From Strigamia acuminata (taxonomy: Eukaryota), in NCBI GenBank assembly GCA_949358305.1, contig OX442314.1, forward strand, positions 31,062,001-31,126,000: a stretch of DNA of 64,000 nt, written 5' to 3'. Below, in pieces: positions 16,291-48,078 of this stretch. The notes beneath the pieces were generated by a model that was given only the letters and a program-made list of their open reading frames with translations, did not search any database and was not told the origin of the DNA. The position numbers were made by a program, and so were the translations under genes. Position 1 is the first letter of the stretch. Each line of letters opens with the position of its first letter.

Positions 16291-16371
16291 ACATGAATAC
16301 TTCAAGTAACTTTAAAAAATTAAAATTAAGATTTCTACTTTATTTTTTTAAATAAAAAAATAAGATGAAAT

Positions 16372-16663: not shown

Positions 16664-17249
16664 GTTGGAAATGAGTGTCAGGTGTGTTGGAAATGAGTGG
16701 TTGGTAATGTTAGAAATGAGTGTTGGGTTATTTCTGAAAACAGTCCCGTTTTGAATTGAAAACTTCTCAGTTTAGAACGCAGATAAACATGATTAGAATT
16801 CAAATAAAATTACAAACGGAATTTCTGCCCGAGTATAGGTCTGGGGTTGCACTATTGAAAACATTCAATCAAATCATGTCTTTTCTTGTCGAATGCTATT
16901 TTCGTTGAAATTCATTTCTTCGTTTTCCCTGGTAATATAATGGAGTTTAAAAATTAGTTTAATTTAGCTTTTACAGTGGGGGAGCATAACTAAGTTAACA
17001 AACGCGACATGTAATGGGTAATAATGAATAACCCACACATGATAAAAAGGGAATAAGCTCTGACAGTAATTTTTTTTAAAATCATGCCTGTGCTTATTGT
17101 TTCTATCAAATGAAATAATGCTAGAAAATGTCGAGAGACCAGTCAGAATACCAATAACTGATCCAATATCGGAAATTAGTTTTCTCAGAAGTATCATTGT
17201 AAAGTATGCATTGGATCTTGGCTTCGAGTCAAGCAACCACTCGGTTGCT

Positions 17250-18150
17250 TAAATCTGCGTTGTACTGCAAGATTTTTTCTTGTTCTGACCGTTATATGGA
17301 AGAATGGATACAACCAGCGTAGCTTCTGGTACGCAGTCAATATGATGCAACGTCCGTTCCCCTCTAAAAAGGTGGTCAGTTTCGGGGAGGTGGCGGCGAT
17401 GGCGGAAACTTCTCCCAGATCGAGAGCGGTCTCGATATTCTGACGGCGGGGTTTTAATCCTTTCGGCGAGCGCCGCTGACCCCGGGAACGGCGAAATCGC
17501 TGGTGTCAGACTCATTGGAAATGATGGCTGGTAGCCGGGAGCTTCGACGGCTAAGCCAAACTTCACTGGGTAGTGGGGCTCCGGTGGGGCTGGCGGGTTG
17601 ACGTTTAGCCTTCACCCACTCGTGCCTGAGTCGGATGGCCAACCCGATGGGTTGTTCACCTCTGTCTCGCGCTTGACGAACTAGATCAGCGCGTTTCGTC
17701 GGCGGGTTTCCATTTTTCCAGTTCGGGAAAAATATGGAATTTTGTCCTCCGTATGAATGCCTTTATCATTGACCTCCATGATTCTACCGGACCATCTTTT
17801 TAAGAGTATATACGCTAATGTCTCTAGCTTTTTCTGTCTTTCTTCTAAAGTTTTACCATCTACTTCTAAATAAAATTCCATCAAAAAATAACAACGCCTC
17901 CAACTCCGTCTCGAAACTTGCCTCCCGCCATGTGCGACGCTGGAGGCCTGGTGGGAGTTGCGGGACGTCGATGAGACGAACTCTGTCGTTCTGGTCTGCC
18001 GTTTCTCCCGCCCTCCACGCCACCATACCAATAATCTCCTCCTTGTCAATAAGAGGACGCACTGTGTGGGCTCGCCAGCGGAAGGCCAAGTCGGCTGCGC
18101 GTCTGTCTAGCCATCGCTCGACATGCGCACGTCTGTCTGTGTGTTCTATA
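17250..18150 (-). pseudogene. Degraded homolog of element A ORF3
   Basis: WKNGNPPTKRADLVRQARDRGEQPIGLAIRLRHEW aligns with WESVRPDPPTMLAELTQQAEATGETPAGSAIRLRQEW. Confidence 0.75.
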
Positions 18151-18859: not shown

Positions 18860-19138
18860 TTATTCACGAGGACACTCTATCTCGGCACGACGAATCCGTC
18901 GACCTATCTGCGCGTTTGTCAGCTCTCTAACGATCTTCACCGAAATATAATGTCTGTTCTCATGTGCCCCGCACATCAGCAACACGAAGCCCGTGAACCC
19001 TGGCGGTACATCGTCGCGTATTGCTTTGCACCGTTCTAAAATGGTGAAAAATTGAATTTTTTTTTGTCAGGTCCATTAAAAATCTTTAAAGTACTTACCG
19101 TATTTTTGTCGGAACGTTTCACAGTTATCGGCGTTCAT
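18860..19138 (-). CDS. Two-exon 71-aa orphan protein
   Basis: Exons 19138-19099 and 19035-18860, intron GTAAGT..TTTAG (63 nt), open after splicing; paralog at 16372-16663. Confidence 0.7.
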
Positions 19139-19434
19139 TTTGTATTTGAAAATTTTCCTTTTTCGTATCATGACTCTAATTATTTTTGTTTACTATCGAT
19201 AGGAAATCACTAATTGGTGGATGATAAAGCCCTCCCCCCCTTTTTTTTTTTTTTTTTTTTTGTTATCAGTTTTTTAAAAAGTTGACATTATGCCCAAAAG
19301 AAAATAAAAGAATTTTGTCAAAAATTTTAATCAGATAATAAAAGAAATTTTCAGTGAATGAATGAATTTCTGCATCCAATACATAACAGGAAATGTTAGT
19401 TTTGAGCTTTTTTAATATTAATATTAATATTAAA

Positions 19435-20090
19435 AACAAAATCGTACAACTTCATTAGTTCTTCATTTTCTATCGCCCATAAAAAGTCATTAAAGTCAAC
19501 GCAAGAACTCGTTTCTTTCGATGTTCAAAGTCAATCGAGTTAAGGTTGCAGGAACAGTCCATCGTCTCAGTCCATCTTCAAGAATGATGATTAAAAGTAA
19601 AAGCAAATTTTGAGATTGTGATACACTGACATGAGGAATTAACTTTGGTGATATAAACCATCCAATTTCGCACACTTGCAATATGGCACATCTTCAATAT
19701 CAGTTTACAAATGTCATCAATCTCACCTTTCCTCCATCGACCTCGGTGTTCCACTGACAATATGCGTGTGGAAATCTGATCCGTTATCCTGGTGATGGAC
19801 TTCGGATATAACAAAGCGAATGAGTAAGCCAAGCCTGGCATAATGTCTGTGGAACACAGCATTGTGAGATTGGTTGACAACCTTCTACTTCTACAATAAC
19901 TCGTAAATGTGAAAAACCAAGTGTAGAAGGTTTTTTTTATGAAAAGCTTCATCTTGATTGAAATTTGAATAACTAAAAAATATACATTTATACACGTAGA
20001 GACACCATGATGGTGCAATGTTAAACACGTTTTTAATCTCAGACTCGTACGTAGCCTCGAACACAAATACATAATAAAATGAGTACAATT
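19435..20090 (-). pseudogene. Third copy of an unknown gene remnant (LLYPKSITRI..., EDGLRRWTVPATL...)
   Basis: 19435-19817 matches 14965-15358 and its copy near 51.7-52.1 kb, but keeps different upstream coding sequence. Confidence 0.6.
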
Positions 20091-20149
20091 AACACTAGAT
20101 GGTGTAACAGCTTTCTTTTTTTTATTTTTTTCGAAAAATTAAATTTTTA

Positions 20150-20577
20150 CGGAGCATATCGCTCTGGCGGGTGGATAGTACCCGTGTCAACGATGGGCAG
20201 CTTCGCCTCAACGCATCCATTCTGTCGAATGCGATTTCTTCCTCGCTCAGAACCGGGATCGCCCCCGGTTCGCGTACCTTGGTTGGTTTCGTTTGTGGTG
20301 CAGGTGGGTCCTCCTGCTTCGGTTTCGACGGCACAGGAAGTCTTCTTTTTTCAATCACGCCCGTAGCTGGTAGCGGTGGTGGAGGGGGAGGAGAGGATGA
20401 AACGCTTACTTCTTTTCTTTCACTTCTTTTTTAAAAGAAAGAAAGAAAAAAATCGTTGTTAAAAAGAAGAAAACGTTATTAAAAAAAGAAAGAAAAATGT
20501 GATTAAAAAGAAAGAAAGAAAATATGATTGAAAAGAAAATATTACCTTTGTTTCGAGACATCGTAGATGTCACTCAT
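20150..20577 (-). CDS. Spliced Pro/Lys-rich orphan gene (5' part)
   Basis: ATG at 20577; phase-2 intron 20545-20426 gives open MSDIYDVSKQRSERKEVSVSSSPPPPP...; 5'UTR intron near 20650-20588. Confidence 0.55.
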
Positions 20578-20734
20578 TCTTCCCTTCCTATACATAAAAT
20601 AAAAAAATACAAAAAACTAAAAAATTTCAATGAAAAATGAATAAACTTACTCTAGTTCTGCAAGCGCTTCATCACAAGCGCGTCTCACACTAAATAAAAA
20701 TTTCTGCAATATGTAGCTGTCTGACATGATTGTG

Positions 20735-20780
20735 GACATCAAATGAAATATGCTCTACTTTTTTGCTCTTCTTATATACT
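20735..20780 (-). promoter_or_regulatory. TATA + initiator core promoter for the gene at 20577
   Basis: Minus-strand TATATAA followed about 30 nt later by TCATTT. Confidence 0.5.
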
Positions 20781-21009
20781 GAAGATGCAGGTGTTGCTTT
20801 GATTTTCAACATCCTTGATTACGTTTTATTTCCCTATAGGAATGACAACAAGTGTTGTCTTTCATACGTTGAATGAAAAACAATATCACTGATTGTTAAA
20901 AGACAACATCACTTAATTATTATTATACGACAAAATCACTTAATTATTGTTATAAAAATACAAGATGTGAAGAAAATATTTGAGTTTTGGCGTGAACGTG
21001 TCCGACATG

Positions 21010-22084
21010 TGCGGCGATCCGGGTTTTTACTTAATAAATCGAGGAGAATTATCAAGCAATCGTCGTAGAGATGCCGTACAGGACTTCTACTCTGTGGCCA
21101 AATGTTTGTCTAGGGGAATGATTTTACACAGAGTAAAGGAAAAATTAGATAGTTTTAATTAGTTCAAAATACAGAGGAGGTATTATTTAGCAAAAGATAA
21201 TGTTTGGGGGTCGATCTGGCTTCTTCTTCAGTATCTACACTCACGGTTGACCGTTGGCTCCAAGATGGCGTCGATGGCGTCGCGTGAGCGCGGGATTTTA
21301 GCGGAGTAAACTCAACGCTAAAATACGTTGCTAAAATATACTAAAATCCTCGCGGAGCAAGCTCAACACGAGAACACGTCTTGCACACAGCGGTTTGATT
21401 ATTACGGAGCAAGCTCGACGTAACAATCCGTCTTAACACAGTTCGCCTTGTGGAGTTAAACTCGACACAAAGCCTTCAAATTGACAGAGCAAGCTCAATG
21501 TCAATTCCACACAGAAATGGCTTAAATTACGTGTAGTAATTCAAGCAGAAAGGCGCTATTCCGTACAGTTGGCACGGACCAGCAATGAATCTCAACTCTT
21601 CCAGATATCACAGATCACACTTAGCAGGGTTTGGCATAAGTTTGACACAGATGTGAATGGTTTGGAAGCAGAATCAAGAATGCGGGAAGAGTGGGCCAAA
21701 ACCGTTTAGCTCACTCCAAAATCTGCTCAGAAAAGCTGCGCAGATGACGAGTTGCACAAAGATCACACACGGCCGCCTTCGGGTCGTGTGCAACAATTGA
21801 GCTGGGCACGCGCGAGGGGAAGGGATGCTCCGCCCAGGCACACGCCTAGCAGCATCATCAAAGCAATGCACGCTGCAGCGCGATTGGTTGACGCTGTTGC
21901 TGGGCCAAAACTTGCTGCAAAACACAATATTATTTGGGTAATATTGTGTCTTGTTTTATATTTAATTAATATATATTTTATTTCAATTTACATTGAAACA
22001 AAACATATAAACTTGTTGAATATGTTTCTAAGACAATTTGGAAATATGGTGCGCACTCAAATGGGAATATTTGAGGTCACCACA
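21010..22084 (-). repeat. Element A 3' LTR
   Basis: Direct repeat of 47004-48078; PPT (minus-strand AAAAAGGGGGGAAG) at 22085-22098. Confidence 0.97.
21295..21506 (-). promoter_or_regulatory. Array of five bulged RNA hairpins (TAR-like) in the LTR of A
   Basis: Five units of variable stem + UU/UC bulge + GAG-loop-CUC; G-U pairs work only on the minus strand. Confidence 0.8.
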
Positions 22085-22256
22085 CTTCCCCCCTTTTTAA
22101 GAAAGAATCCTATTCTTTTCTAAAAGAGACAGGTAAGTATGAGAATAAATACACAAGGTTTCAAAGTAAAATGGAACAGGATATATATTTATTCTTTTTT
22201 ATTACAATATAAAAATAAAAAAGTAATTATTTTTAATGGACGGGTATGTTCCCTAA

Positions 22257-25094
22257 TTATTTAGGCAACATGTCCGTCGAATGATCGTTTGGATCTTTGT
22301 GCTCGGTGACGGTGCACAAAGATCGGCCGGCGTTCGGTCCTGACCGGAAGCCGGGGTTGATGTGAAGCCACACTTGTTTTATGCGGTTCACACCATCCCT
22401 TCGTCCAAAACCCATCTCGAAATACTCCTGCGGGTCTTGAGGCGTAATTCGGGCGAACACCAGGCGTTGATGCAGGATCCACGGCTGTTGTTCTTTGATG
22501 TGGTTCTCCAGCCACGCGAGGACTCGATTGCAGAGATCCTCGTTGTTTTGGAGAATCGTCTTCGTTGCGCTCGTTATGAAGCAGAAGGCGTATATCGAGC
22601 GTAAGCGTTGATAGGCTGTGAGGTAGGTGGCCATATTCAATCCCCTATCTCTTGGCGGCGAATCCTTTGGAGGTGGCGGTGGTGGCGGCGATTTCTTGCA
22701 GATCGAGAGCGATCTGGATCTGCGCGAAGCCGGGGCGCGCGTCTTTGGTCTTGCACCGCTGGCCACAGGCACGACGAACTCGCGATCGTCGCTGTCGATC
22801 CACTCCATTGGAGACGAGATGTTGCAACTCGGTGCCTCGGTTGCACGGGAAACACTCGACGTTGCCGTGATGGCAGCGTGGAGTGGAGCTGCGGATGACG
22901 GTGGTGCGCCAGCGGGACGGGCGGTAGCTCGTTCCGCTGCGCGTCGCTGCTTCAGCGCAGCCCATTCCTGCCGTAGTCGAATGGCGGATCCAGCCGGAGT
23001 TTCGCCAGTCGCCTCGGCTTGTTGCGTCAATTCGGCGAGCATCGTTGGAGGATCGGGGCGAACTGACTCCCAATCGTCCAGCAAGGCTCGTGGAAGCCCT
23101 AACGGCACGGTCCACAATCGGGTGGCGGCCGCCAGAGCCATTCGTAGGTCAGGAAAGACTCCTTGGAACAGGATTCTAAGTAGTCCTTCCGACAGCTTCC
23201 TGTGCATCTTCTGCAACATTCGTTGCAGTTGCTTGTCGGACTTGCACGACTCCAATTCTCGGGCAAGCCATTGCCATTCCTTCTCACCTTCGCGGATCTG
23301 AGCGAGCTGGTATTCGTCCAGATGCGCGAGGTACATCGTTTGGGCTGTCTCGGGAAATGATGAGAATCGTCTCCAGAGATCAGCGCACTCCTGTGCGGGA
23401 AATGGTTCCGGAGAGATGTGTGATCTCTCAAAACGAATGACCGTTGTCACTTGTGGCACGGGCACTGATGGGTCTGGTCGCATGTCGCTGGTGACTGGAC
23501 GGCAAGCGAACGGCAAAGAGGTGTTGACGTCTCCTTGACCGGCTTGCAATGCGGCGATGCGTCTATCTTCTTTCGCTATCTCGTCCGACCAGTCAATCCG
23601 GCCGGAGGAGGAAGCGCTAAGCTGTGAAGCGTTGGATCGTTCTTCACGCGACGAGAGTGAACTCCTCGTGGAAGATTGGCGCGATTGCACTCGAGGTCGG
23701 CTTCGGGATGTGGGTCTCGACACGGACTTCGAATGTCTTTTTGGCGGCGTCGACTCGCGTCGGTGATGCGAGCGATGACGAGTCTTTTGAAGTGGAGGTA
23801 ACCCTCCAATGGCGCCTTCCCCCGACGACTGTGTTGGGGAGGAGCGACGGCCACTGTAAGGCGACCTCGATGATCGTGACCTCGACGTGGAGCGCGGTGG
23901 CACCACGTGGATGGTGGAAGCGACCTGTACCCGGGGCTCAGGCTCTGGATACGGGTTTGGCACGAAATCAGCATGGAAACATCCGCCCATGGCTAATTGA
24001 TGCATTTCCGACTGGCATGTCGGCACCCAACGTTTCTTTCCGTCTGTTGTTACACGGAAAGATTCGTGGTAGAGGCGTACAACCTCGGCCTTGGTTTGGT
24101 CAAGACGTTGGAAGATGTCCTCCAAAATCTGTCGACGCTCCCACGCAGGAGCGTTGAAGTAACGGCGATGGTCTCGCGTTTCTTGAGCGATCACTGTGAA
24201 GGCGAAGTCGAGCAACACGTTTCGCAGTGGTCCGAAGGTGTCGCGCTTCATTGCCCACTCGAGGGCGTCGCGATGACCAAATCCATCGATTAAATAGGCG
24301 ATCCGAAACTTCGTTCCCCATCGCTTGTTTAAGGATCTGGAGAACTTGTGGCGGGCCGCCCAAAACGTCAGTCTCCCCTTGGACTTGATGATTTCCGGCG
24401 GCAATGCATGTCGCCAGACTCCAGGATCGGTCGGAACATCGGGGTGCAGTTCGAGATGCGTCTCCCGAAGCTGGATGATCTGTAAAATATTCGAAGAAAT
24501 AATTAAAATCCATTTTTTCGTGTAAAATAATTATTTCCGAATTTTCAGTGAATAAAATCACGGGTGAGATTTCATTCGATAGTTTAGATTCATTAAATTT
24601 TTCAAAATATTTGAAAAATCGTGAAAAACGTTGTTTTCGACGGCTATGTTTCAATGTTGGAGCGTTACCGTAGCAACGCCTCAAAAACGGGACACAGCGC
24701 CATCTGGTGATAAAAATGGCGGCGCCTTCTTATGAAGACGTTACCAACGAACTTTTTGCTTTTTTGAGCGAAAAATGCACTTTTAATTACTTTTCATGAC
24801 TGAAAGGTAATTTTATTTTAACTAATTTACCCGATCGTGTCTTTGTGCACGCGTTTCGCCATTCGGATCGGCGAATAGACCTCCTCGTAGGCGGGGTTGG
24901 GGCGGCGTGACCGGTAAATGGGCAGCAGCGTCGGCCAGAGCGGCTTGAGCTTCGGCGGACGCTTCGGCGGACTCTTCGGTGACATCCACGGATGCATTCG
25001 AAGTGTTTGCAGAACCAAGCAACGTCGAATTTGTTTCTAATTCGAGGCTGTTGGCGCCGGCTTCGCTTCCTTCTTTCGGTTCCTCTTCTTCCAT
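22257..25094 (-). CDS. Element A ORF3: spliced, about 828-aa Arg/Ser-rich accessory protein, not env
   Basis: Exon 25094-24831, phase-0 intron 24830-24480 (GTAAAT..TTTACAG), exon 24479-22257 in frame with the 715-aa ORF. Confidence 0.8.
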
Positions 25095-25304
25095 TTGAAC
25101 GACTAATCCAAATGGAGAAGAAAAATGAAAACTAATTTATTAGTTTTTCCTTGGAAAATTTCAAAGAAAAAACTACTTACAAGTGAAGAATCTCGTTGAA
25201 ATAATCCGATTGTTTCGCTTTTGGTTTTTTGGAGATGAGCACTTAACACACGTGTGAGATCGAAGTGAACTCAGACGCGAAGTGATCAGTTCAAATACCG
25301 GAAG

Positions 25305-26816
25305 TTACGTTTGGGTAACGTCGTTGTTAGTGACGTCATCCAATCTTATCGTTTGATTGGTTTGCGTATGGCTTGGGGAATTGCTCCTTACGTCATACGG
25401 CTGATCTCTGGATCTCGAGGTTATCGAGGGGAGAAGACACATGTTGTTTTTTCCTCTCGGTTTACGAGTCCGAAGATTATATCTCTTTGTCGGCGAGGGA
25501 TTTATTGTATTTAAATCGCCGTCTTCATTGTCATCGGAGACTGAGTCAGATGAGTCTTTTATTTCAGATGTTTTTTGTTTCTTTTCTAAAAACACCTTTT
25601 TATTTAATTTTTTAGCAATTTCAAGCTTTTTGAAACTGTCACGAAGTTCAACGTCGTTATTCACGAGGTCTGACTCTATTTGTGGTTTGGATGAATTATC
25701 GACAGGTATTTTCTTTAATTCATCGTCATCTAACGTATTAATTATATTTTCAGTCTTTTGACCGACTTCTTCGCCTTCTAACCATACTTCCTGATCGAAA
25801 CTCGGGAAATACGGGGTTAATTCCGACGAATGGACAGCTGGAAATATTTCGTTATTCTCTAGCTTTCTCAATTCTACGGATCCTCCCTGTAATACTTTGG
25901 TTATTACATAAGGTCCTGTTCTTTTATCAGCGATGCCAGCTGCAATGCTGCGGGCAGCACTCGACAAAACATGAGAATCTCTCCAAACTAAATTATTTAA
26001 TTTAAAATTGGAGAACTTCTCACCTTTTTTAAGATTAACTCGTCTACGCAAATCTAACACATGTGACATCATGTGTTGATATGTTTCGGCGATAACGGCT
26101 TCTAATTTCTGCACGTATAAATGTGGGTTTTTTGGATCTACGACCAAAATTCCTTCAGGTATTCTTGGATCCCAAGGTACTCTGAGTTCGCGAAAAAAGT
26201 TAAGAAATGCGGGAGAGAAGTCTCTTCCTCTCGTCACCGTAGTTCTCAAACTAAATGCGAATTCACGCAAATATTCGTCCCATTTGGAATGAACAGATGA
26301 ATAAATTGCAACAAGATATTTGATGTCACGGTTAACCCTTTCAACCGGGTTAGCTTGTGGGTGATACGTTGAAGTTGGTGTTGGAACCATCTTGAACTTT
26401 TCACAAATTTTTTTAAAGACTTGGGCACGGAATTGCGGGCCGTTATCAGAAATAATTTTTCGAGGGAATCCCATGCTCATGGAAAGGTGATAAATGCAAT
26501 TTGCTACTTTTCCAGCAGTGGGGTTACACATTGGATATAATTCTGGCCAATGAGTTGCCACGTCAAGTATGACTAAAATATGTGTGTTGTTTTTGCGCGT
26601 CCGAGGTTTCGGGCCGGTCAAATCAACACTTAGGCAGTCAAATGGGCTGTAAGGACCCATTTGCGCTGCTTCAATTTGTCCTTTCGTTCGAGGTTTGCAA
26701 GCTTGACAACGCTCGCAGTGTCGAATGAATCTCGTAATGTCCGATTTCATGCCTTTCCAGGTATAAATTCGGCGTGCTCGATAAAGAGTTCTTGCAATTC
26801 CTGGGTGACCAGAAAG
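25305..26816 (-). CDS. pol: Element A pol, 3' part (integrase)
   Basis: H..CxxC zinc finger, DLTG, ISDNGPQF, NPVER DDE core and GPY motif; in frame with 41061-44027 once B is removed. Confidence 0.95.
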   Translation of the reverse strand, partial: LSGHPGIARTLYRARRIYTWKGMKSDITRFIRHCERCQACKPRTKGQIEAAQMGPYSPFDCLSVDLTGPKPRTRKNNTHILVILDVATHWPELYPMCNPTAGKVANCIYHLSMSMGFPRKIISDNGPQFRAQVFKKICEKFKMVPTPTSTYHPQANPVERVNRDIKYLVAIYSSVHSKWDEYLREFAFSLRTTVTRGRDFSPAFLNFFRELRVPWDPRIPEGILVVDPKNPHLYVQKLEAVIAETYQHMMSHVLDLRRRVNLKKGEKFSNFKLNNLVWRDSHVLSSAARSIAAGIADKRTGPYVITKVLQGGSVELRKLENNEIFPAVHSSELTPYFPSFDQEVWLEGEEVGQKTENIINTLDDDELKKIPVDNSSKPQIESDLVNNDVELRDSFKKLEIAKKLNKKVFLEKKQKTSEIKDSSDSVSDDNEDGDLNTINPSPTKRYNLRTRKPRGKNNMCLLPSITSRSRDQPYDVRSNSPSHTQTNQTIRLDDVTNNDVTQT

Positions 26817-26820
26817 TGGG

Positions 26821-28562
26821 TATGACGGTTTATAAGTGCTATTTATTAATAACACGGCCGAATTGAAAGTGTTTTCGGCCAAACCTGCATTTGTCAATGC
26901 TCCGAGTCACCACTAGATGGCGCGATTATAATTCAGCGGTAAATTCGAATTGCGAGTTAAGAAAACTGGTAAATAAATATAAGAATATATTTATTTGTAT
27001 GAAACAACACTTTATTAGGATTAATATAAATATATATTAAATGATTATTGTTCACACTAAAGTGATGGGAATCTCTAGTTCAGCAGAAACGGAGATTTGA
27101 TAATCCATCGATCAACCGATCAATGTGATTGGTGGATCCATTTCCGGTCCTGGGTATCCAGTTCCGGTTGTGGTGTGAATTAGCATATTGCTCCTCTGTA
27201 TCCACTTCCGGCGATACGGGATTGGAGGGATTCGTGGAACCCATGTTCCAATTGGTTGATTGGATTAATCCCTAATCCAGTCAGGTTATATAAACCCAAA
27301 CAACCGGCCATTCCGCAGCTCTGTTTGATTATTTCTGTTTGGTATTGTTACTTAAGAAATATGATTCGTTGTTCACGTAAAAAACCTTTTGGTTCTTTGT
27401 TGATTTATTCGCAAAGAACCGTTGCATGATTCTACAGAATCATGCCACCGCCGGCAATTGAAGTCGAAGTGCTGGGATCATTATGTTGCATAAATGTTAC
27501 AGTTTACGGTTGCGACGCCGAAGGAGAACCCGCCGTTGTGCAATTCAGTATCCTCCGGACAGGACCATGTGGTCTTTCTCGGTATGAACGTATTCCGTTA
27601 CCGCGAGTAGCATCGGTATTGTTGAGAATTGGTTCCTTCACCGGATGGTGCCAAAGCAGTCTGTTTTACAGTAACCACGAGTAGCACCAAGTGTTTGGCA
27701 AGCTGATTCTCATGGTATTCGATGCCAAAGTAGTCGGTCTATTATTAGTACCGCGAGAGATTATACTGCTGTGCGGAGCCGCGAGCTATCGACTCCTGTG
27801 TACGTGATACCGTCAATCGCTAGACGAACGACCGTGTTGCGACGCAGGGGACGCTTGATACCGTTCTGCATTGCAAGGCGTATATTTCTTTCGATGGCAA
27901 TTGTGTGTTGCGACGGGAAGCTTAATCTTCATTTTATTTATAACAGCAAAACTTAACTTGACAACCAGTTGGACAAATCAAGTCTAAAGACTTAATCTTA
28001 TATTTAACTCAATATAACCGATAAAGTTGACGACAACTTATCCGCGAAATATCTAATAGAAACTCACAACGACACGAATTAAATATAATTCGTAAGCGGA
28101 ATATTGATAAGTAAATGGATACATTTACTTACACCAATATCCTCCCAAAGTTGTGGCGGTGCAGACAAAGTCAACCGCAATGCTCAGATCATTCGATTTA
28201 TCGACGTGCGATAATTTACACAAGCGAACCAAGAAACCAGCGAAGCCGTATCGGACTCCAGAACGCAGCCATCCGGCTTAAGATGACATCTATAATCAGG
28301 TCGAGCGATGGGGAAACCGCTCCCATCCCACGGACACGTAATGATATTATTTTAGGGTCATTTGGCCAAACCATTTGTATAGTTTAGTAGTTATCTAACG
28401 GGCCAAATGTCGGCATTAGTCTTATGTACAATTTAGCATTGATATTATTGTTTACCAACAATAAACTGTCTTGTAGTTATCTCGTATTATATTCACTGTT
28501 TATTTATTGCGATCTCTTCCCGGTACCATTGTTAAATGGGAGTTGTGGTCGTCACCGTCACA
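26821..28562 (+). repeat. Element B 5' LTR
   Basis: TATGACGG...CCGTCACA termini; TATATAAA at 27287; AATAAA at 28460. Confidence 0.97.
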
Positions 28563-28564
28563 CG

Positions 28565-28583
28565 TGGAGGTCCCACCGAGATT
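28565..28583 (+). promoter_or_regulatory. PBS complementary to tRNA-Gln
   Basis: TGGAGGTCCCACCGAGATT two nucleotides after the LTR. Confidence 0.9.
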
Positions 28584-29633
28584 AGGTTGCAATTAAATTC
28601 GATTGAATTGCAACAGTGAATATTGGAGATAAATATTTAACTAAAAGATTTAGTTAAAAATAGACAGATTAGATTTTCAGTTTATATTTCCATGTGAAGA
28701 AGTTAAACTGATGAAATAGAAATGTGTAGTAGATTTTTCTTAATTATTTTCGTTCGAAGATTTAAGGGATTTCAAAGACTACCATCTAATCTCACACGGA
28801 GATCAGGTTGCAATTAATTCGATTGAATTGTAAAAGTGAATTTCTTTTTGAGATAAATAAAGACCAGAAAATTTTGTAAATAAAATTTTACAAAATACAG
28901 TTTTAGAAAGCATATTTTGTTTTCTCGAAGAAAACAGGATTATACAATTCTAGACAAAGGAATTGCAACCAGATTTTTAAATCTATCACACGATGGCTGA
29001 GATAGGTTTATTCGAAGTATTAAATACTAAAAACTCCAGGAGAATTCGATGAATATAATTACAGAATAGCTGTATTTTTGGTATTTATTTTATTTTGAAA
29101 ATATAGAAATACAAAACGAGTTTGAACATGTTTTAAACGAATCACAAGAAAAGAAAATCTTGATAAATATATGGAATTTCGAAGTAAATCCAGTACTAAG
29201 GAGAAGTTACATGATTGGAAACAATTAACAAAATTTATTAACAGTAAATTTATTTTATTTTTCGTGAATTGTACAATTTTTGGGAATATTTACGAATATC
29301 ACTCGAAGGAATTTTATTTTATCGGTGAAAAAAAAAAAAAAAAACTAAAAAAGTCAAAAAGAACGGACTTAGTAGAGAACTGATAACGAAAATGATACGT
29401 TCGTTATACAATCATTTGATAACGAACCAGCCAATCAGGAACTAGGAGATCTAAGGATCCCCAGCCCCCTGCTATTAAAGGAGAGCCAGATCAGACTGAG
29501 ATCATTCGCTTCCAGACCAGACCAGCAGACGTGTTTCAGTAACCATCCTGACCGCGCCATCCGATCCTAGTTACGATTCGAAGTTCCCTCGCTAAATTAG
29601 TAAGACGACCGATTCAATTATATTTTTATAAAA

Positions 29634-36308: not shown

Positions 36309-37122
36309 TGATAGCGTATTTTTTTAAATAAAATATAAAGTATTTAAAAGATAAAAAATCGGGTCACTTTTGACCCACAAATTAATTATGGATAAATCAT
36401 AACCTATAGGAGAGTATGGTAAAAATACCCCGGGTAGAGAGTAGAAGATTTGTTCTCTCACAAGTTTCACACACATGTGCGAGCCAACTTTGACACCTGT
36501 GTCGATAGAGAAGTTCGTCGCGATTTCTTTCAAAGAAAACCTCGAGATTCATAGTAAGAATCATGTATTACCAATAAAATTGGAAAGTAGGTACCAAGAT
36601 TTAAATGTTATAATCCTCTAATGATAGAAAAGGACGAGAAAACTTCGGTGATTATTTTCGTCTGAAAAGAGACGAACACGTGACCTCGGCGTGAGGAAGA
36701 AAAATTTCTCTTTCGAGAAAATTCGAAATATCATCACGACGGTTCAACGCTGTACTAGAGTGTTACGTGTAAGTAGTGATAAATTTAAATATATCAAGAG
36801 ATATTCACGACTATTTTATATATAAAATTAGAATTCTACGTTGGCAGAGAACATCTTCGCTAAAAGCAACGAGTTTTGTCAATTAAAAAATCGACATCAC
36901 ATCATTGTGAATACTTAAGTGGATTCCGGAGATTCCTAGTGTAAGTATTCTAAAGATAATTCTATCGAATATTACGAATAATAAAAAGCCGCGCATGACT
37001 CCGATATAAAAATATATCGAAACCATCGAGGAAGTTGATAAATTTTCACGATAGATGGCGGTATAAATTTAGTCAGTTAAAATCGTATTGATAAGTTTTC
37101 TATGTTATTTTTCTCTAGAAAA

Positions 37123-38814
37123 ATGGGAAAAAAGATAGAAAAGAAGAGGAAGTATGTGCTGATTGAATCCTCCTCCTCCGATGAGGAAGTGGTGGAACCT
37201 CCTACGTCTGCCGCCGTATTCGTAGAAGGGTGTCCCAAAACACCTGTGATCATCAACGCACGAGGATGGGACATTTTAAGTTGGGCCCGTGAGCATCCCG
37301 AACTGCTCCCCGCCGAACTTGGACCACCCGGGGTCCCCACCTTACAAGAAGGGCCTGCGAAAAAGGAAACTGTTTCAAAACAATTTGTTATCCCGAAGAT
37401 AACAAAGAAGACGGATGATTTCAGCAGAAATAATCCGCCTATAGAGAAAAATCAGCCGAGTACTAGTCAATCACGAAAGGTGGAGATTGTGTACAACCGA
37501 GTCAAGTCGCCGGAACGAAGAAGAAAATCTCCTCCAGCGGAAACTAAACGCCGCCGAACCTCTGAAGACGCTACACCTTCCTCTTGTACTGGTCAGGAGC
37601 GTTCAAAAAGAGAATACGTTAGGTTTAACGATTCACCAGACCGAGATCGGGAAAAGAGGTCGTATTCTTCCTACCGAAGGTCCGACCAACCTAGGAATAG
37701 GCCAAATACCAGCGCATGGTCAGATCGCCAAAAGTTGGCGAATAAAGTCCGTCAGATTCAGAAAAGACGTGATCAATGTAAACGAGATTCGGAGAACGGC
37801 AAACCACACGACAATATGGTACTCTCGAAGGACGAAGTGCCATGTCCTTTTTGTTCCGCCGTCGGGTGGGTCTCGGGATCGGGAACCGGAGGCCACCTGG
37901 CGCAATGTTCCAATTGCGAGGGCACAAAGAAGCGGCCCAAAAGCCAACCTTGGCGCCCCAGCTTTCTACCATTTGTGGTCAAGGGGATTCACCCTCCCCC
38001 AGCCAGGATGTGGGCAACTTGCCCGGAGTGTAAAATTGTCCTCTCCAGTGACGGAAGATCGCCGTACATCAGCCCGGAGTTCTTGAACGCCATAACCACT
38101 CCACTAGGAAGGGAAATGCAAGATCTGAGAATTCCGCCAGAAGCTCTAGAGAGCTCCCAAAGACCACGAAGTACGACAGTCGTCGATAAAGGATGTCAAA
38201 CGGTATCCAAGAAGAACGAAAAAGAAGCCGAAAATGAACTTCTTGCGGAACCCTTTTTCCCTCCACCAGGAGCGAAAATTGCGCATTTATTCGAATACGA
38301 GGTGAGCTACTATTTTCCGACACTTTTTAGAATTGCCGAGAAAATTACGGAACAAATACGCCAAGGATCTACTGACCCTTCGAACATCAACTATGCAGTC
38401 CATCTGATGAAGTTGATATTTAACGCCAATCGGGGCGAATCTTTTGCCGTGCTGGAGCACATTTGGACACTGCTAATTGACAGAGTCAACACCGACGGAA
38501 GAGGATTAATAAGCCCTTCATGGTTCTACGGACTTCCCTGCATTGCGGAAATATACGACGCTTCAAAGAAGGTTATTGAGGAAAGTTATGAGTTAGTTGA
38601 GAAGACGCCAGAATATGAACCACGGTCTCCAGAGTACGCGCCGGAATCTCCACCCACAGAAGATATAGGTGAAGGTTCAAAAGAACCCAATTTCGTCATC
38701 GACCGAAAACCAGCGGAATTTCTTCCACTAGAAAAATCCGAAGTCGGCGAGTCCAGCGAGACTCTTAAGAAAGAAAGTGAAGGATCGGAGTCCGATGAAG
38801 AAGAAGTCAAGTGA
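37123..38814 (+). CDS. Element B ORF3: basic, Cys-motif accessory protein, not env
   Basis: Open 570-aa frame; acceptor-like TTTTTCTCTAG (ending 37118) just before ATG 37123; Arg-rich tracts; CPFC, CSNC and CPEC. Confidence 0.8.
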   Translation: MGKKIEKKRKYVLIESSSSDEEVVEPPTSAAVFVEGCPKTPVIINARGWDILSWAREHPELLPAELGPPGVPTLQEGPAKKETVSKQFVIPKITKKTDDFSRNNPPIEKNQPSTSQSRKVEIVYNRVKSPERRRKSPPAETKRRRTSEDATPSSCTGQERSKREYVRFNDSPDRDREKRSYSSYRRSDQPRNRPNTSAWSDRQKLANKVRQIQKRRDQCKRDSENGKPHDNMVLSKDEVPCPFCSAVGWVSGSGTGGHLAQCSNCEGTKKRPKSQPWRPSFLPFVVKGIHPPPARMWATCPECKIVLSSDGRSPYISPEFLNAITTPLGREMQDLRIPPEALESSQRPRSTTVVDKGCQTVSKKNEKEAENELLAEPFFPPPGAKIAHLFEYEVSYYFPTLFRIAEKITEQIRQGSTDPSNINYAVHLMKLIFNANRGESFAVLEHIWTLLIDRVNTDGRGLISPSWFYGLPCIAEIYDASKKVIEESYELVEKTPEYEPRSPEYAPESPPTEDIGEGSKEPNFVIDRKPAEFLPLEKSEVGESSETLKKESEGSESDEEEVK

Positions 38815-41060: not shown

Positions 41061-44027
41061 TGGGTGGCCATGCATCAGCCAAATAATTTTATACTTCAAT
41101 GTCTGAGGTACAAAAACTTTGAGTGCTCTCCCATCCTCCCCCAATTCATCAGACATTGTGGGATGAAATTGCATTAATAAGTCATTTTCAATTAAGAAGG
41201 TGGTTGCGTATTTTCTATATTGTTTCCTCTGTAGTCGCGTTGTGACGTCAGGCGGAAATTGATTACAATTTAAAAAATTACGCATCAATTGGCAAACTTT
41301 ATCTTCTTTTTGTGCCTTAATTATGTCTTCCCTTGTGGGAGGTTCACAATCAAGACGTTCTACGATTTTGGCGACAAATGCTTTTATTAAAACATTTGAC
41401 GAAGGAACTTGGAATTTCCTTGAAATCTGCGCTCTTATGACGTCATCTGATTCCTCAGAGGGGTCATAAATTTTAGTCCAATAGTTGACGAATTCGTGAT
41501 CTTCCTTTTCCTCCAGCGTGGAGATAGGAAGCTCATGAAATTTTCCCATTTTCCAATTTCTTTGTGGTGATGGACAATAAGATAATAATTCATCATTATC
41601 TCCGTCGTCTTCAGGATTTTCCGGTTTATCAATCGGTGATCTGGATAAAGCATCCGCTAAAACATTTAGTGGACCTTTAATGTATTGAATTTCGAAAGAA
41701 TAGCGCATCAGCTCCATTTGCCAACGTGCTAACCTTCCGGCAGGTTCGTCTAACTGCATCAACCATTTTAATGCTTGATGGTCAGTCCTTACTATGAATG
41801 TTGTGAATTCCAAATAATGTCGGAATTTACGTAATGCCCAGATTACCGCTAGGCATTCTAATTCTGTGGCGCTGTAATTTATCTCAGCAGGTTGCAAACT
41901 TCTGCTGGCATAAACGCAAGGCACTTCGATACTTTGATCATCGATTTCCCTCATTTGCATAAGCGCGGCGCCTAATCCTTTTCGACTAGCGTCAGTATGC
42001 ACAATGAATGGTTCTGTCAAATCGGGCATGGCCATTGTTTCTGCATTTGTTAAAGCATCTTTTATTTGATCAAAAGCTCTTTGATGAATTTCCGACCAAA
42101 TAAATTCCACATCCTTTTTGAGCAAAGGACGTAGAGGTTCTGTCATTACTGCTAGATTTTTAAGCAATCGGTGAAAAAAGTTCACCATTCCCAAAAATCT
42201 CTGCAACTCTTTCAAATTTGAAGGAGCTGGCATTTCTTTAATAGCGGCGACTTTTTTAGGGTCGACACTAACTCCTTGAACACTTAACTTGTAACCAAGA
42301 AAAGTTAATTCTTTTCTGCCAAATTTTGATTTTTCTGGATGAACATGAAGATTTGCATTTTCAAGTTTACTCAGAATTTCTTCCAGATGAATCATGTGTT
42401 CTTCAAAATTTTTAGATATAATAATTATATCATCGAGGTATGCCCATGCGAATTTTCGATAGGCATCCCCCAAAATTTTTTCTATCAACTTTTGAAAAGT
42501 TGACGGCGCATTTACGAGACCAAAGGGCATGACTCGAAATTGTAGTCGACCCAAAGGGCTCCAAAACGCAGTTTTAGCACGGTCGTTCGGATGAACCTCT
42601 ATTTGCCAATAGCCTTTTGACAAATCTATCGTTGTGACCCATTCAAATCTTCCGAGTTCTCGCAAGATTTCCTCGATGCTCGGCATTTGAGGAGGGTCGT
42701 ATAATGTGTGTGCATTGAGTGGTCTAAAATCAATGCAGAGTCTCGGATCACAATCCGGACGCATCACTAGAACTATTCGCATCCCATAGTCTCCAGTGGC
42801 TTGTTCAACGTACCCATTATCCAACATATCTTGACAGATTTGACGGATAATTTCACGTTTCTGTGGATTTACGCTTTTAAACGGAACTCTAATAGGAACT
42901 TTAGTGTCCAGTTTAATTTCATGCCTAACGAGGTGTGTTCTACCTGGTCGGCGTGACAAAATCTTTTCATGTTTCTTTAATACTTTTTCAAGCATTAAAT
43001 TATTTTCCATTGACAAATTAGCGTCGCTAACAAGTCTTTGTACTATATTTTCTTCATTGGCAACTTTAGCTTGACATGCAGTGGCGGAACCAGCTTTCAT
43101 GTGATTTGCTTTAATAAAGTCGCGTTTCATGATTTCTTCGGGTGGATCAAGGAACTCTTGATAACGATCAAGAATCGCTTGAGGAACAAAAGGTAAATCT
43201 TCCTTCAAAGTCTTAACAAAATTCCAAGACATGGTCTTAGGATTTGGTTGAATATTGAGTCGATTCATGAAATCACATCCTAATAAAATAATAGGATATT
43301 TATTTCTCAAAATTATGAATGGATGACTTAACATCCCGTGTGTCCACGCAAAAGAAAGCAGGAGAGTTCCTTCTGGGACTACATCTTCTGAAGCAGTTGT
43401 AACTCTCACATCTGGTCCAATTGGTCGAATTTCATCTTCCAGTTTCAGCGAAATTACTACGGAGTAGGCCATGAAGCTTCGATTAGCTCCAGAGTCTAAC
43501 ATCCCTGTTATCATACCATTTGCCGTCTGCAATCGAATCGTCGGCAAATCATTGCTGTTTGGTATGTCCGCGTACTTGCACTTAAAACGTCGCGGTGGCT
43601 TAATTTCTATCGGCGGATCCAATGGTAATTCGTCCAATAAATCATTAGTGACTAGCGTTGTAGCCATTAACTTTTCAATACAATCGTCAAGACCAGGTAA
43701 ATCAATTTTATCTGACCTTTCAACAATTTCCGGTGTTGGCCTAGCTTTTCCATCTAGCAAAGTAACAGCATCTTTTATTTTAAATTCCCAATCAACTTTT
43801 ATTTGTTGAACTTTTTCTTTAAAAAATTCCTCAGTGATGTCTTCATTTTGCAGCACAAGCTTTAAACTGGAAACATCAATTTTTGGAAATATTAAATTAT
43901 TTTCGATTTCTAATTTAATCTGAGTATTCAAAAATTCATCTAAAATTTGAGATGGTGTTAGTTCATTTTCCGAGGCGGTAGGCGTCGCATCCACTAGGCC
44001 GTCTGGATGCGCGCTTACAAGTTTTTT
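41061..44027 (-). CDS. pol: Element A pol, 5' part (PR-RT-RH, start of IN)
   Basis: MLDSGA, YLDD, HTDAS and TDHQAL; ends at MHGHP at the B insertion. Confidence 0.95.
43986..44027 (-). promoter_or_regulatory. -1 ribosomal frameshift signal (gag-pol, element A)
   Basis: A AAA AAC (44027-44021), then an 8-bp CGCATCCA/TGGATGCG stem; the -1 frame reads into pol. Confidence 0.85.
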
Positions 44028-46911
44028 AGAAGTTCGCCGATTGATTTCATCGATTTTTCGAACTCCTCAATAATCTTGTCTTTGCTTGTTTTTCTATCAG
44101 GACATTCTTTAGCCCAATGTCCCAATTTTTTGCAGATGTTACATGGATCAGTAGCGGGCGATTTAGCGACCTTTGGTGAAGGTGAACTTGAACGTTTGGC
44201 TTCATCCTTTTTAGGGGTCGGCGACTTCGATCTACTGAGTGCGTCTGTTTTTGGTGAACCAAAAGTAACGTTTTTAGGCGCCATCTTTGGTCCAAATTTT
44301 CTAGCTACTGCGTTATTACGGGCTAATAAAGCAGCTGCAGCCTCGCTTTCTGGTTCCGAGTCAGATTTCTCCGGTTCAGAAGCAGTTTCCATTTCGGTCA
44401 CTTCAGCCAAGTGAGCTTTAGGGGTTGGATGAGGATTTTTTCCATCCGATCCCTTTTTCGATTCCTTGGCAGTCTCTGCCAAAAAATCTCCTTGTTTTGG
44501 GGGTTGCAAAAGAGGGGTGTTAGCAAAACGTGTGTCTTTTGCCAACTCCTTTCTCCGTTGCTGTCGCTTAGCGTACGCAATTTTTTCATCAGCTGGTAAG
44601 TAAGCTTTGTAATTTTCGTCAATCCTTATCTGATTGGCTCGCATAAATTTGGCTAATTCAGCTAAACCACCCGGATAAGGTGCTCGTACTGAAAGTAGAA
44701 CATTTTTGGAATAATCTGTCAATCCACGACGGAATTGACGATCAATGGCTGCGTCTCCCATCGTATAAGGGAGAGTTACCAATAAATCTTCAGTCCTTCT
44801 TAAATAAGAGCGAAGACTTTCGCCTTTATTTTGAGAAAGATTATCCCACATTTGTAGTAAGTCTTCACTTGACTCTCCATATTCAGTCATGAATTCCTCT
44901 ACAAAGTGATTCCAATTTTGAAATTGTTTTGAATAAAACCATTTTTCAGCTCGGTCTATAAGAGCTTTAGGTACTACTCTTTTCAAAGCAGTGTGACATG
45001 CAATGCCATTCAACCTTGAAATTCGTAAAACTTCATCTAAAAGAGTGGATCCAGCTTCCCATTCTCCATCGAATAAAGCGGGTTTGATGTGATCCCATCT
45101 AATAGTTCTTTCATCAACTAGATCGTGAGTCCAGTTGTTGGCAGTGTATTGTGCAATTTTCTGTCGTAATGCAATGTCAGCATTATCGGCAGTAGCGTCA
45201 GATCGATCAGAAGATCGACGATCAGCTAATAATCGATCAATTTCCTCAGCAGTGTAATAATGAGTATTACGCCGCGAAGAATGGCCTCGATGTTGACGTC
45301 GATGAGATCGATGTCGATTATCGCGTTCTTGTTGCGCATTCACATCAGAATCCGACCGTGAATCAGATTGTGAATTTGAAGGCGTGTTAAAATGTGGTGT
45401 TTCAGGTGGGTCGGGTGGATCGCCGTCATCGTCATCTGGCGGTCGACGTCCACCTCCAGGCGGTCCATCTCCATGTCCCTCTGGATTTCTTCCATCTGGT
45501 GGATTTCTCCTATACTGACCTCCACCTGGTGGGCTTTCATGTCCGTCGGGCGGTTCGCGTGCTGGATTGGTGTCTCGTCGACTTCTTTTCGACGAATCTT
45601 GCTGTTGAGCCAATGGTATCGTTCGGGCAACGTGAATACCTGTTTCATGTTGTTTGTTTCGATCGTCTACCATTCCCAACAGTCGGTCACTATTGTGAAA
45701 ATTAGGGTTTCGATTACCAGGGAGCGGATTGCGATCAGCTCTCCGTTCCTCAGAATCTGAAGGACGTTTTCTTTTTGAGCGATGGCGACGACGTGAACGT
45801 TGGTCGTCATCACTCGACAATCCAGATTGGCTACTTAACTCTGAAACAACAGAAATTGTTATTGTTTCTGGAGTTAAAATAGGAACAGTCGGCGCAGCCA
45901 TTTCTGGTTGCACCAATTGGTCAGTATAATTTCTTGCTTGCAAACGATCTTTCATTTCTGCAAGCTCTTCTTGAGCGCGCAACAAATCAGCTCGGAGAAT
46001 TTCATTCTCATTTATTTGATTTTGCGATTCGTCCGGTTGTAATCGCTTAGCAGGGCCGCTGGACTTGACTTGTCCGCTCGTACTGGGTTGATTCAGCGAG
46101 TGGAAAATCTCGTCTTCACGCTTGGCTATTTTGCTCTCGTTTTAGCTCTCGTTTTAGCACGTGTGTCTAATTCAGCAGCATATCTTACTAGTTGATTATG
46201 ATTGCGTTGGTAGTGGTCTGCCAAATCAATCAGTTCTTTATTTTTCTGCTCCAACTTATTTTTGGTAAGTTCGAGCTGCCTTCGCGCCTCTTGGTGTGAG
46301 CGAATTGAAAGTTCATTTCTAACATTCATTTTTGAAAGATCTTCCACTTCACCTTTTAATCTGTATTCCCTAGCTTTTTGGGCTAGAAATTCTTCATTTT
46401 GTCGATTGAGTTCCATGTGTTGAAGCTCAACCTCCGTTTTTTGTTGTTGAAGCTCAGCTTCTTTTCGTTCCATTTCAAATTGTAAATTTGAAACGGCACG
46501 ATCAGTGTGAAGTCGTATCATGGCGCGATGAATCTCTTCCACCGTCATGTTGTCCGTTATTTGGGCGCCATCCTGGCGTGCTTGATTTCTCAAAGCATCC
46601 AGCATGGTCATGCGAGGAGGTGATTCGTGAGACGATTCACTTTCCATTTCTCGTAACGTATTTTCCACTTCCTCCAGTGGAAGTGGCGGGAGTTCTTGTT
46701 CGTTAGAACTCGCACTTGATGCGCTCAGGGCTCGAGCAACTTCATTTTCAGCGTCCTTAAGTTGTTTCGGATCTGGAACTGGTGTTATTTCTTCGGAAAT
46801 AATTTTCTCCACAAGCATTTCAGGCTCGAGAGCCGGCAAAACCGTCGCTGCTCGTTTCTGAGTGCTTGGTCGACCTCGCTGTCGTTTTACAATTTGCATT
46901 GGCGTCGCCAT
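44015..46911 (-). CDS. gag: Element A gag, split by a frameshift near 46140
   Basis: Coiled coil, capsid FDG..AEKWF, knuckle CNICKKLGHWAKEC; break at a 12-nt tandem duplication (TRAKTRAK). Confidence 0.9.
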
Positions 46912-46983
46912 TTTGTCAAATTGAAAAAGAACAATGGAAATAAAGGATCTTTTTGCAAAAATCGGATTTTAACAATCAAAACT

Positions 46984-47001
46984 ATCCCGGACGGGCCCCC
47001 A
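46984..47001 (-). promoter_or_regulatory. PBS complementary to tRNA-Pro
   Basis: TGGGGGCCCGTCCGGGAT, one mismatch to canonical TGGGGGCTCGTCCGGGAT. Confidence 0.9.
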
Positions 47002-47003
47002 AG

Positions 47004-48078
47004 TGCGGCGATCCGGGTTTTTACTTAATAAATCGAGGAGAATTATCAAGCAATCGTCGTAGAGATGCCGTACAGGACTTCTACTCTGTGGCCAAATGTT
47101 TGTCTAGGGGAATGATTTTACACAGAGTAAAGGAAAAATTAGATAGTTTTAATTAGTTCAAAATACAGAGGAGGTATTATTTAGCAAAAGATAATGTTTG
47201 GGGGTCGATCTGGCTTCTTCTTCAGTATCTACACTCACGGTTGACCGTTGGCTCCAAGATGGCGTCGATGGCGTCGCGTGAGCGCGGGATTTTAGCGGAG
47301 TAAACTCAACGCTAAAATACGTTGCTAAAATATACTAAAATCCTCGCGGAGCAAGCTCAACACGAGAATACGTCTTGCACACAGCGGTTTGATTATTACG
47401 GAGCAAGCTCGACGTAACAATCCGTCTTAACACAGTTCGCCTTGTGGAGTTAAACTCGACACAAAGCCTTCAAATTGACAGAGCAAGCTCAATGTCAATT
47501 CCACACAGAAATGGCTTAAATTACGTGTAGTAATTCAAGCAGAAAGGCGCTATTCCGTACAGTTGGCACGGACCAGCAATGAATCTCAACTCTTCCAGAT
47601 ATCACAGATCACACTTAGCAGGGTTTGGCATAAGTTTGACACAGATGTGAATGGTTTGGAAGCAGAATCAAGAATGCGGGAAGAGTGGGCCAAAACCGTT
47701 TGGCTCACTCCAAAATCTGCTCAGAAAAGCTGCGCAGATGACGAGTTGCACAAAGATCACACACGGCCGCCTTCGGGTCGTGTGCAACAATTGAACCGGG
47801 CACGCGCGAGGGGAAGGGATGCTCCGCCCAGGCACACGCCTAGCAGCATCATCAAAGCAATGCACGCTGCAGCGCGATTGGTTGACGCTGTTGCTGGGCC
47901 AAAACTTGCTGCAAAACACAATATTATTTGGGTAATATTGTGTCTTGTTTTATATTTAATTAATATATATTTTATTTCAATTTACATTGAAACAAAACAT
48001 ATAAACTTGTTGAATATGTTTCTAAGACAATTTGGAAATATGGTGCGCACTCAAATGGGAATATTTGAGGTCACCACA
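47004..48078 (-). repeat. Element A 5' LTR (hairpin array at 47289-47500)
   Basis: Direct repeat of 21010-22084, about 4 substitutions seen by eye. Confidence 0.97.

Follow-up and report, generated by a model that had tools for sequence, protein, structure and literature searches.

A spliceosomal intron in the sense strand should vanish when its element copies itself through RNA (PMC2923131), and the present locus raises the question of how such an intron can be kept. The window, a stretch of 64,000 nucleotides (nt) from Strigamia acuminata (contig OX442314.1, positions 31,062,001 to 31,126,000), is a nest of mobile elements. One of these, element A, is a Ty3/gypsy long terminal repeat (LTR) retrotransposon on the minus strand (48078 to 21010), which carries a third gene between pol and its 3' LTR. 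A spliceable intron in this gene is kept in most copies of this abundant and young family, and rare exact losses provide a built-in proof that it can be cut. Element A offers a natural system in which to ask by what means LTR elements leave their genome RNA unspliced, a role for which the nematode CERV is the sole invertebrate protein found among the matches listed in the literature. The third protein of element A is tentatively proposed here to be a nuclear factor of the CERV or Rev kind that favours unspliced genome RNA.

The third gene and its removable intron

The third gene consists of an 88-codon exon and a 740-codon exon, together encoding 828 amino acids (aa), with the following features.

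25181..25304, minus strand: predicted non-coding first exon and internal promoter region, with TCACTT at 25285 and 25268
25103..25180, minus strand: predicted intron of the 5' untranslated region (5'UTR), 78 nt, 24% GC, recognized by its motifs
25094-24831, minus strand: first coding exon, 88 codons, acidic and Ala-rich, with its ATG at 25094
24830-24480, minus strand: phase-0 intron, 351 nt, GTAAAT..TTTTACAG, 32% GC
24479-22257, minus strand: last coding exon, 740 codons and a stop

The junction 24830/24480, which the initial annotation had named as the place at which to look for splicing, was found in other copies of the element. Two public runs from one study, of unrecorded type, cover element A, and their contigs were compared with positions 21000-26800; in both runs a contig joins 24479 to 24831 and omits exactly 351 nt. 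The coordinates of the phase-0 intron and the frame of about 828 aa hold as predicted. The skipped stretch has the ends CT..AC, corresponding to GT..AG on the coding strand. On their short side the skip contigs extend for 52 and 66 letters, and only a single letter of overlap fits both sides, so that the skip is not a deletion driven by repeats. Deletions are common among the copies, with 17 other joints, and the rough chance of striking a junction named beforehand is 1.6e-5. With values of 409 and 235, the depth of the skip form exceeds the median for eight other rare deletions by factors of 1.5 and 2.1, and amounts to 0.7-1.5% of the depth of the intron bins and to about 5% of the lowest site depth in the intron.

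Both runs have a DNA-like character. Depth is about equal in intron and exon bins and greater in the LTR, the two runs share their rare deletions in a steady ratio, and the longest contigs measure 29 and 37 kb. With DNA as the source, the skip form would be a retro-copy, present at one or two loci, of spliced RNA; with RNA as the source, it would be the spliced message. Under either run type, the 351-nt intron can be cut and mostly is not. Most of the sequence depth keeps the intron and the form with the exact loss is rare, which supports the earlier proposal that a spliced form coexists with an intron-keeping genome.

Unspliced reading from the ATG at 25094 ends after 90 aa, and the intron contains stops in all three frames (8, 12 and 2) as well as a TTAAT 27 nt from its end. 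The 90-aa and 715-aa open reading frames (ORFs) described initially do belong to one joined frame, although the latter had been counted from a TTG; the same exon has 740 codons, with its first Met at aa 77. The frame of the last exon is not a product of chance, because no stop-free frame longer than 281 aa arose when this exon was shuffled 300 times. The GC content of the exons is 57-58%, compared with 32% for the 351-nt intron and 40% for pol.

Two further observations concern this region. The 351-nt intron has a GC-richer core at 24640-24760 (minus strand) with CGCCAT words on both strands, which we take to be YY1-like and which may be a cis element. A second CT..AC joint, 24961->25271, occurs in one run only and would remove the ATG region; it is left uninterpreted because of its non-consensus context and because such an end pair is expected by chance about once per ten tables of 18 joints (a rough estimate).

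The differences among copies support purifying selection on the third gene, and this at two depths. Among the 40 best supported of 213 differences, 19 lie within the coding exons of the third gene, and 16 of these are synonymous (33% expected for transitions, P=7e-6), namely 4/4 in the short exon and 12/15 in the last exon. In the other two frames, the synonymous counts fall to 0/4 in the short exon and 2-3/15 in the last exon, and in pol, taken for comparison, 5/6 differences are synonymous. Among the insertion-deletion rows shown (12 of 21), four are in the 351-nt intron, as 1-nt differences among copies, and zero are in the two exons. The second depth is given by a broken homologue.

17211..17708, minus strand: broken homologue of last-exon aa 476-662, 43% aa identity, E=7e-15, 6 stops

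This homologue is located 4.5 kb from the third gene of element A, and its identity to the last exon is 0.30-0.42 at third codon positions versus 0.51-0.73 at positions 1-2. It sits amid small spliced genes just past the 3' end of element A and shares its strand with a decayed gag-pol (50906-48131) on the other side of element A; with element A set aside, the two are 3.3 kb apart, the homologue being downstream. The homologue may therefore be the third gene of an older decayed element. The decayed gag-protease itself (48131-50906, minus strand), of a third Ty3/gypsy element, is 38-40% identical to element A and is cut off beside the insertion site of element A.

The 5' end of the gene is predicted from motifs. 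The 5'UTR intron would extend from a GTAAGT donor at 25180 to an acceptor AG at 25104-25103 behind a pyrimidine run, with CTAAT 41 nt from the intron end. Downstream of this region the first ATG is that at 25094, with none other between 25338 and 25095. GTAAGT occurs once in the 11,753 nt of the sense strand of element A (expected number 3.25 for the whole strand and 0.05 for the gap that separates pol from the third gene), and all three GTAAGT motifs of element A (one) and its nested sister, element B (two), sit in this short gap. No good acceptor is found ahead of the predicted non-coding first exon, which favours an internal start, and a promoter near 25290, with TCACTT at 25285 and 25268, is likely. 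By an alternative route, a donor in the LTR may be spliced to the same acceptor; this donor, GTGAGT at 47238, belongs to a candidate intron in the 3' part of the LTR (47238-47104, minus strand) with CTAAT, a pyrimidine run, AG and 34% GC; if used, this intron would imply that the LTR start site is upstream of it. At the other end of the gene, two AATAAA motifs lie 54-64 nt past the stop and ahead of the LTR; they are a possible internal poly(A) signal and weak evidence for an early end, the surrounding sequence having 26% GC.

The third protein and the LTR hairpin array

By hydropathy, the third protein is not an envelope (Env) protein: the maxima of a 19-residue Kyte-Doolittle scan are 0.59 for the short exon and 1.19 for the last exon, and by this measure neither a signal peptide nor a membrane segment is present, as had been stated earlier. 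The N-terminus is acidic (17 D/E in 88 aa), and the last exon contains 10 Cys residues and three N-glycosylation sequons in 740 aa. In a weak model, with a predicted local distance difference test (pLDDT) score of 40, the last exon has three helical blocks (aa ~55-140, 360-520 and 615-710), with one Arg/Ser-rich and one Pro/Ser linker connecting them. The single-sequence folds are poor (pLDDT 40 and 50), Foldseek of the models returned none at E<=0.001, and a wide structural search reached a Z of 6.6 at most, on a helical hairpin. For the last exon, 0 matches at E<=0.001 were obtained among 1.84 billion representatives, no relative was found in a 5.8-billion set (lengths 407-1295 only), and viral and metagenome contigs gave no match. 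Searched against Pfam as a whole and by block, the third protein matched no family, and in particular no env family and no RNA-recognition motif (RRM), and the 88-codon exon had no match in Pfam or the window.

The initial annotation had pointed to long RS/Arg tracts. An Arg/Ser-rich linker is indeed present (23595-23894; 20 R, 31 S and 4 D/E per 100 residues), with 28 RS/SR dipeptides in the last exon, but it is not an RS domain of the SR-protein type, there being no RRM and the longest pure R/S run being 8 aa. Nor is it an Arg cluster of the Tat/Rev type: no 12 residues of the protein contain more than 4 R or more than 5 K+R, and no 8-residue window has 5 K/R. The Gag of element A has an Arg-rich patch with 7 R in 12 aa. 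A capsid-like nature of the middle block is unsupported, as no match was found to the gag of element A, of element B or of the remnant in the window. Eight stretches of the third protein match a loose Leu-rich export-signal pattern and are candidates at most.

The LTRs of element A carry a hairpin array, which had been proposed as the target of the third protein.

21297..21505 and 47291-47499, minus strand: five bulged hairpins in each LTR, at LTR offsets 580-790

Each hairpin comprises a 7-bp lower stem, the sequence of which differs between hairpins, a 2-nt pyrimidine bulge starting with U, a GAG/CUC upper stem and a loop of 4-5 nt. The pattern occurs only in the LTRs of element A on either strand of the window, and element B is without it. 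All 50 of 50 cells are paired and six of ten pairs are changed on both sides, counts that lean toward the structure because it was derived from the same five sequences; the covariation score was reached by 0 of 500 shuffles, and slid controls pair at 41-51%. The six matches to Rfam are every one far under the gathering score. In five of five hairpins the bulge starts with U and is followed by G-C and A-U pairs, and a U-first bulge below G-C and A-U pairs is the Tat site of TAR (PMC10970485). Some copies are without units of the array (joints 21288->21479 and 21374->21479), and one loose contig end shows a variant second hairpin.

The array is real, but its partnership with the third protein is unsupported, because it is Gag that has the Arg cluster, both introns of the third gene are free of the array, which belongs to the LTR, and element B is without an array. 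It would mark unspliced RNA only if the mRNA of the third gene ends at the AATAAA motifs at 22203/22193. Since the candidate leader intron at 47238-47104 is downstream of the array, the array may be in U3, and hence at the 3' end of the RNA rather than at the nascent 5' end.

Element A, its sister element B and their surroundings

The remaining features of element A are given below.

47004..48078, minus strand: 5' LTR, 1075 nt, TG..CA ends
46984..47001, minus strand: primer binding site, 18 nt, beginning TGG, which we take to be tRNA-Pro-like
44015..46968, minus strand: gag region, two overlapping ORFs, Retrotrans_gag and a CCHC knuckle (Pfam)
41061..44066, minus strand: 5' part of pol, with protease, reverse transcriptase (RT) and RNase H (Pfam)
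25305..26819, minus strand: 3' part of pol, with integrase (Pfam)
22085..22256, minus strand: AT-rich 3' region, AATAAA at 22203 and 22193
22098-22085, minus strand: polypurine tract
21010..22084, minus strand: 3' LTR

The order of genes according to Pfam, gag followed by protease-RT-RNase H-integrase, is that of Ty3/gypsy, and the LTR pair, the TG..CA ends, the target duplication, the primer binding site and the polypurine tract of such an element are all present. The target duplication is CATG (48079-48082 and 21009-21006). The element is young; its LTRs differ by 4 mismatches in 1075 nt (99.6% identity), a count of 5 over 1079 nt including one that sits in the 4 nt past the LTR end. The identity of its RT to the best relatives is 45-48%. 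A FastTree tree, built from 119 RT regions with a Chara sequence as the root, places elements A and B together (three rows, support 0.98) within a 62-row group (support 0.99) whose members include elements from tick, fly, wasp and bee, which makes an arthropod host likely. Integrase-led searches for related loci gave no match.

Element B sits within the pol of element A.

26820-41060, plus strand: element B, young, Ty3/gypsy, nested in the pol of element A, LTRs of ~1743 nt with 4 mismatches
36309..38814, plus strand: non-env third gene of element B, ATG at 37123, 563 aa
36769-36847 and 36941-37118, plus strand: predicted 5'UTR introns of this gene, 24 and 29% GC

The two GTAAGT motifs of element B, in 12,498 nt, compare with 4.16 expected overall and 0.33 in the gap, the probability of at least two being 0.044. 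Its third protein has a hydropathy maximum of 0.82 and no membrane segment, contains Cys pairs (CxxC) and a basic Ser-Pro stretch, and has one weak zinc-finger match under the Pfam cut-off. It is unlike the third protein of element A, and a homologue search for it was empty. Judged from their sequences, the two sister elements share one gene layout and have unrelated third proteins. At 26810-26830, the start of the 5' LTR of element B lacks the TG present at the start of its 3' LTR, so that its target duplication is ambiguous.

Beyond the 3' end of element A, small genes with GT-AG introns are seen at 16300-21005 on the minus strand (~20650-20150, 19140-18860, 18650-18440 and 16660-16375), two of which resemble paralogues by eye; the four pieces tested had no Pfam match above the cut-off. 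Positions 1-5829 and 52598-58764 share 97% identity as a duplicated unit that contains GC-rich ORF pieces, and a related piece lies at 9775-10817; by eye, these ORF pieces resemble a tyrosine recombinase and a Walker-A NTPase (with a weak AAA_16 match), and the recombinase-like piece was not confirmed by Pfam. A repeat resembling a decayed DNA transposase by eye is present in three partial copies (14445-16287, 19435-19960 and 51169-52911). The first and last of these were considered as the LTR pair of an outer element and rejected, as the repeat runs into the longer duplicated unit and is transposase-like. At 58900-60979, 22-nt tandem arrays form two inverted arms about 1 kb apart, as in some foldback-type element ends.

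Retention of the intron and known systems

Because the sense intron sits inside an element copied from RNA, the packaged RNA would nearly always have to be unspliced at this intron; at the same time, the gene needs splicing to encode more than 90 residues from its ATG, and something must therefore sort the two RNAs. It is very probable that the rare skip form arose by reverse transcription of spliced RNA and that the packaged RNA is nearly always unspliced at the 351-nt intron. A short spliced mRNA with an internal start near 25290 probably makes the third protein. In the final step, which is plausible by analogy and still on the doubtful side, the third protein might bind nascent genome RNA, or splicing or export factors, and tip the balance, whereby genome RNA would escape splicing and reach packaging, as with CERV for Cer1.

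Several points weigh against this proposal. Nothing among relatives, domains or folds connects the third protein with RNA processing, and it lacks both an RRM and an Arg cluster of the Rev/Tat type. No likeness to CERV was seen in the database search of the last exon, which was not a direct comparison, and CERV shares exons with gag on the same transcript, whereas the third gene of element A apparently lies wholly after pol. The donor of the 351-nt intron, GTAAAT, is off consensus, and the 5'UTR intron, although the motifs reported for it are in place, is not seen to be removed among the joints listed (15 of 18). Retention of the intron could be set in cis or by host tissue. As regards the data, both runs come from the one study and possibly from the assembly's own sample, summed contig depth does not equal copy number, the synonymous count was drawn from selected, best-supported differences, and the codon-position pattern of the broken homologue was taken from a protein-level alignment, which biases toward it.

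A different role for the third protein, on balance unlikely, would be that of a transcription or anti-silencing factor that raises LTR output, either in a Tat-like manner through the hairpins or by countering silencing by Piwi-interacting RNA (piRNA) or chromatin, with retention of the intron a separate matter. The five covarying hairpins confined to the LTRs of element A within the window and the match of their U-first bulge and G-C/A-U pairs to Tat binding features (PMC10970485) agree with this role; a self-standing early gene would suit a positive feedback switch, and fast-evolving orphan genes in this slot would suit host conflict. However, Arg residues number no more than 4 per 12 in the third protein compared with 7 in Gag, the array lies upstream of the candidate leader intron, which would place it in U3 at the RNA 3' end, element B does without the hairpin pattern, and the hairpin pair counts are subject to the lean described above.

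The third protein could instead act in the cytoplasm as an accessory of particles or RNA granules that helps particles or genome RNA to reach the germ line, with the hairpins as a 3' localization or packaging signal for Gag or host motors. Signals of the Egalitarian/BicD type for localization and of the psi type for packaging are established precedents, and either would fit an array of bulged hairpins close to the 3' end of the RNA; Gag provides both a CCHC knuckle and an Arg-rich patch, and the slot serves spread in other elements. We consider this role quite improbable, since the protein has no membrane segment, the keeping of a sense intron is left unexplained, and its Arg/Ser-rich linker is of a kind more typical of nuclear proteins, which is a weak argument.

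Alternatively, the third gene might be a captured passenger cassette with its own promoter, introns and poly(A) signal, which benefits the host or hitch-hikes, takes no part in handling the RNA of the element, and is limited in its splicing in cis. The GC content of 57-58% against 40% in pol, the two AATAAA motifs 54-64 nt past the stop, and the position of the broken homologue amid small spliced genes, by which the gene family may not be confined to LTR elements, are in line with a cassette, although no cellular homologue appears among the 1.84 billion representatives, the broken homologue may be the third gene of the decayed gag-pol that is 38-40% identical to element A and on the same strand, the sister element B shares the layout with an unrelated protein, and AATAAA is common in sequence of 26% GC; a captured cassette thus has little probability. 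There is similarly little to expect of a bolder idea, an arthropod Ty3/gypsy lineage that independently evolved 'complex' regulation with one intron-bearing regulatory gene per family, a separate unit in the env slot, in which the protein of element A would bind the TAR-like array and switch from an early-terminated spliced mRNA to read-through genome RNA, as a Tat/Rev-like circuit assembled from unrelated components. A highly diverged env or fusion gene, or a non-spliceosomal intron with a chance deletion, is very improbable and largely refuted already, for although the gene occupies the env slot, 17 other joints exist among copies and the fold is weak (pLDDT 40), the N-terminus is acidic, hydrophobic segments and a Pfam env family are missing, there are 10 Cys and three sequons in 740 aa, and the skip hits both predicted splice sites to the base, with both exons under selection in the joined frame.

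Among known systems, the Ty3/gypsy (Metaviridae) elements of arthropods resemble element A in their LTRs, primer binding site, polypurine tract, CCHC gag and protease-RT-RNase H-integrase order; the RT matches of element A reach a maximum identity of 48% and, as they bear no curated family names, point to no named lineage; PMC13524379 gave no help in the placement. Among the matches listed in the literature, which include few subscription papers, no Ty3/gypsy element of an arthropod was found that carries either a non-env gene forming a unit of its own with introns or a TAR-like LTR array. The combination present at this locus (own sense introns after pol, rare exact loss, two unrelated sister proteins and a hairpin array) was not found there either, a weak indication that it is new. 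HIV-1, with Tat/TAR (PMC10970485) and Rev/RRE (PMC10309623), likewise has spliced accessory genes beside unspliced genome RNA and an LTR hairpin with a U-first bulge below G-C and A-U pairs; it has one TAR, whereas element A has five tandem hairpins with 4-5 nt loops, not within an intron. Tat and Rev possess an Arg-rich motif, which the 828-aa third protein lacks.

The ORF3s of bdelloid rotifer LTR elements carry recognizable enzyme domains, and the third protein of element A is without any. They are also non-env third-slot genes that are treated as a separate transcription unit, and the main text of the paper describing them does not contain the word 'intron' (PMC5408684). The env genes of Tor3b and Tor4b of Oikopleura dioica occupy the same slot and have an internal promoter in or just after pol, as is predicted for element A, but Tor Env is a membrane glycoprotein from transcripts without splicing, whereas the protein of element A is non-membrane and its gene bears introns (PMC4402516). 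In retrotransposon assays, the loss of an intron serves to detect reverse transcription (PMC2923131).

The closest parallel is Cer1, the Ty3/gypsy element of C. elegans, the spliced 2.4-kb mRNA of which encodes CERV while the 8-kb RNA bypasses consensus splice sites (PMC3315495). CERV is nuclear, is required for export of the unspliced Cer1 genome RNA, and comprises three structured domains with flexible linkers (PMC10309623). Like the third protein of element A, it is an orphan non-Env protein encoded by a spliced form, with the splice sites preserved in the genome RNA, and the several blocks and linkers of the weak model of the third protein are similar to its architecture; the spliced form of element A is known here from contigs of unrecorded type, not from RNA reads. 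Unlike CERV, the third gene has its own ATG, its own short introns, a predicted first exon and a likely internal promoter, and a C4 finger such as that of CERV is not evident in its protein, whereas the third protein of element B has Cys pairs. At best, the third protein would work like CERV, and membership of the CERV family is not claimed. A regulation like that of complex retroviruses, as proposed initially, is less novel than it may seem, CERV of Cer1 having been published already. If the third protein is not a switch, the locus would hold a conserved orphan accessory gene of a kind missed by automatic annotation; if it is a switch for splicing or export, 'complex retrovirus' regulation would have arisen again in arthropod retrotransposons, by a plan each part of which has a precedent in Cer1, Tor3b/Tor4b or the rotifer ORF3s.

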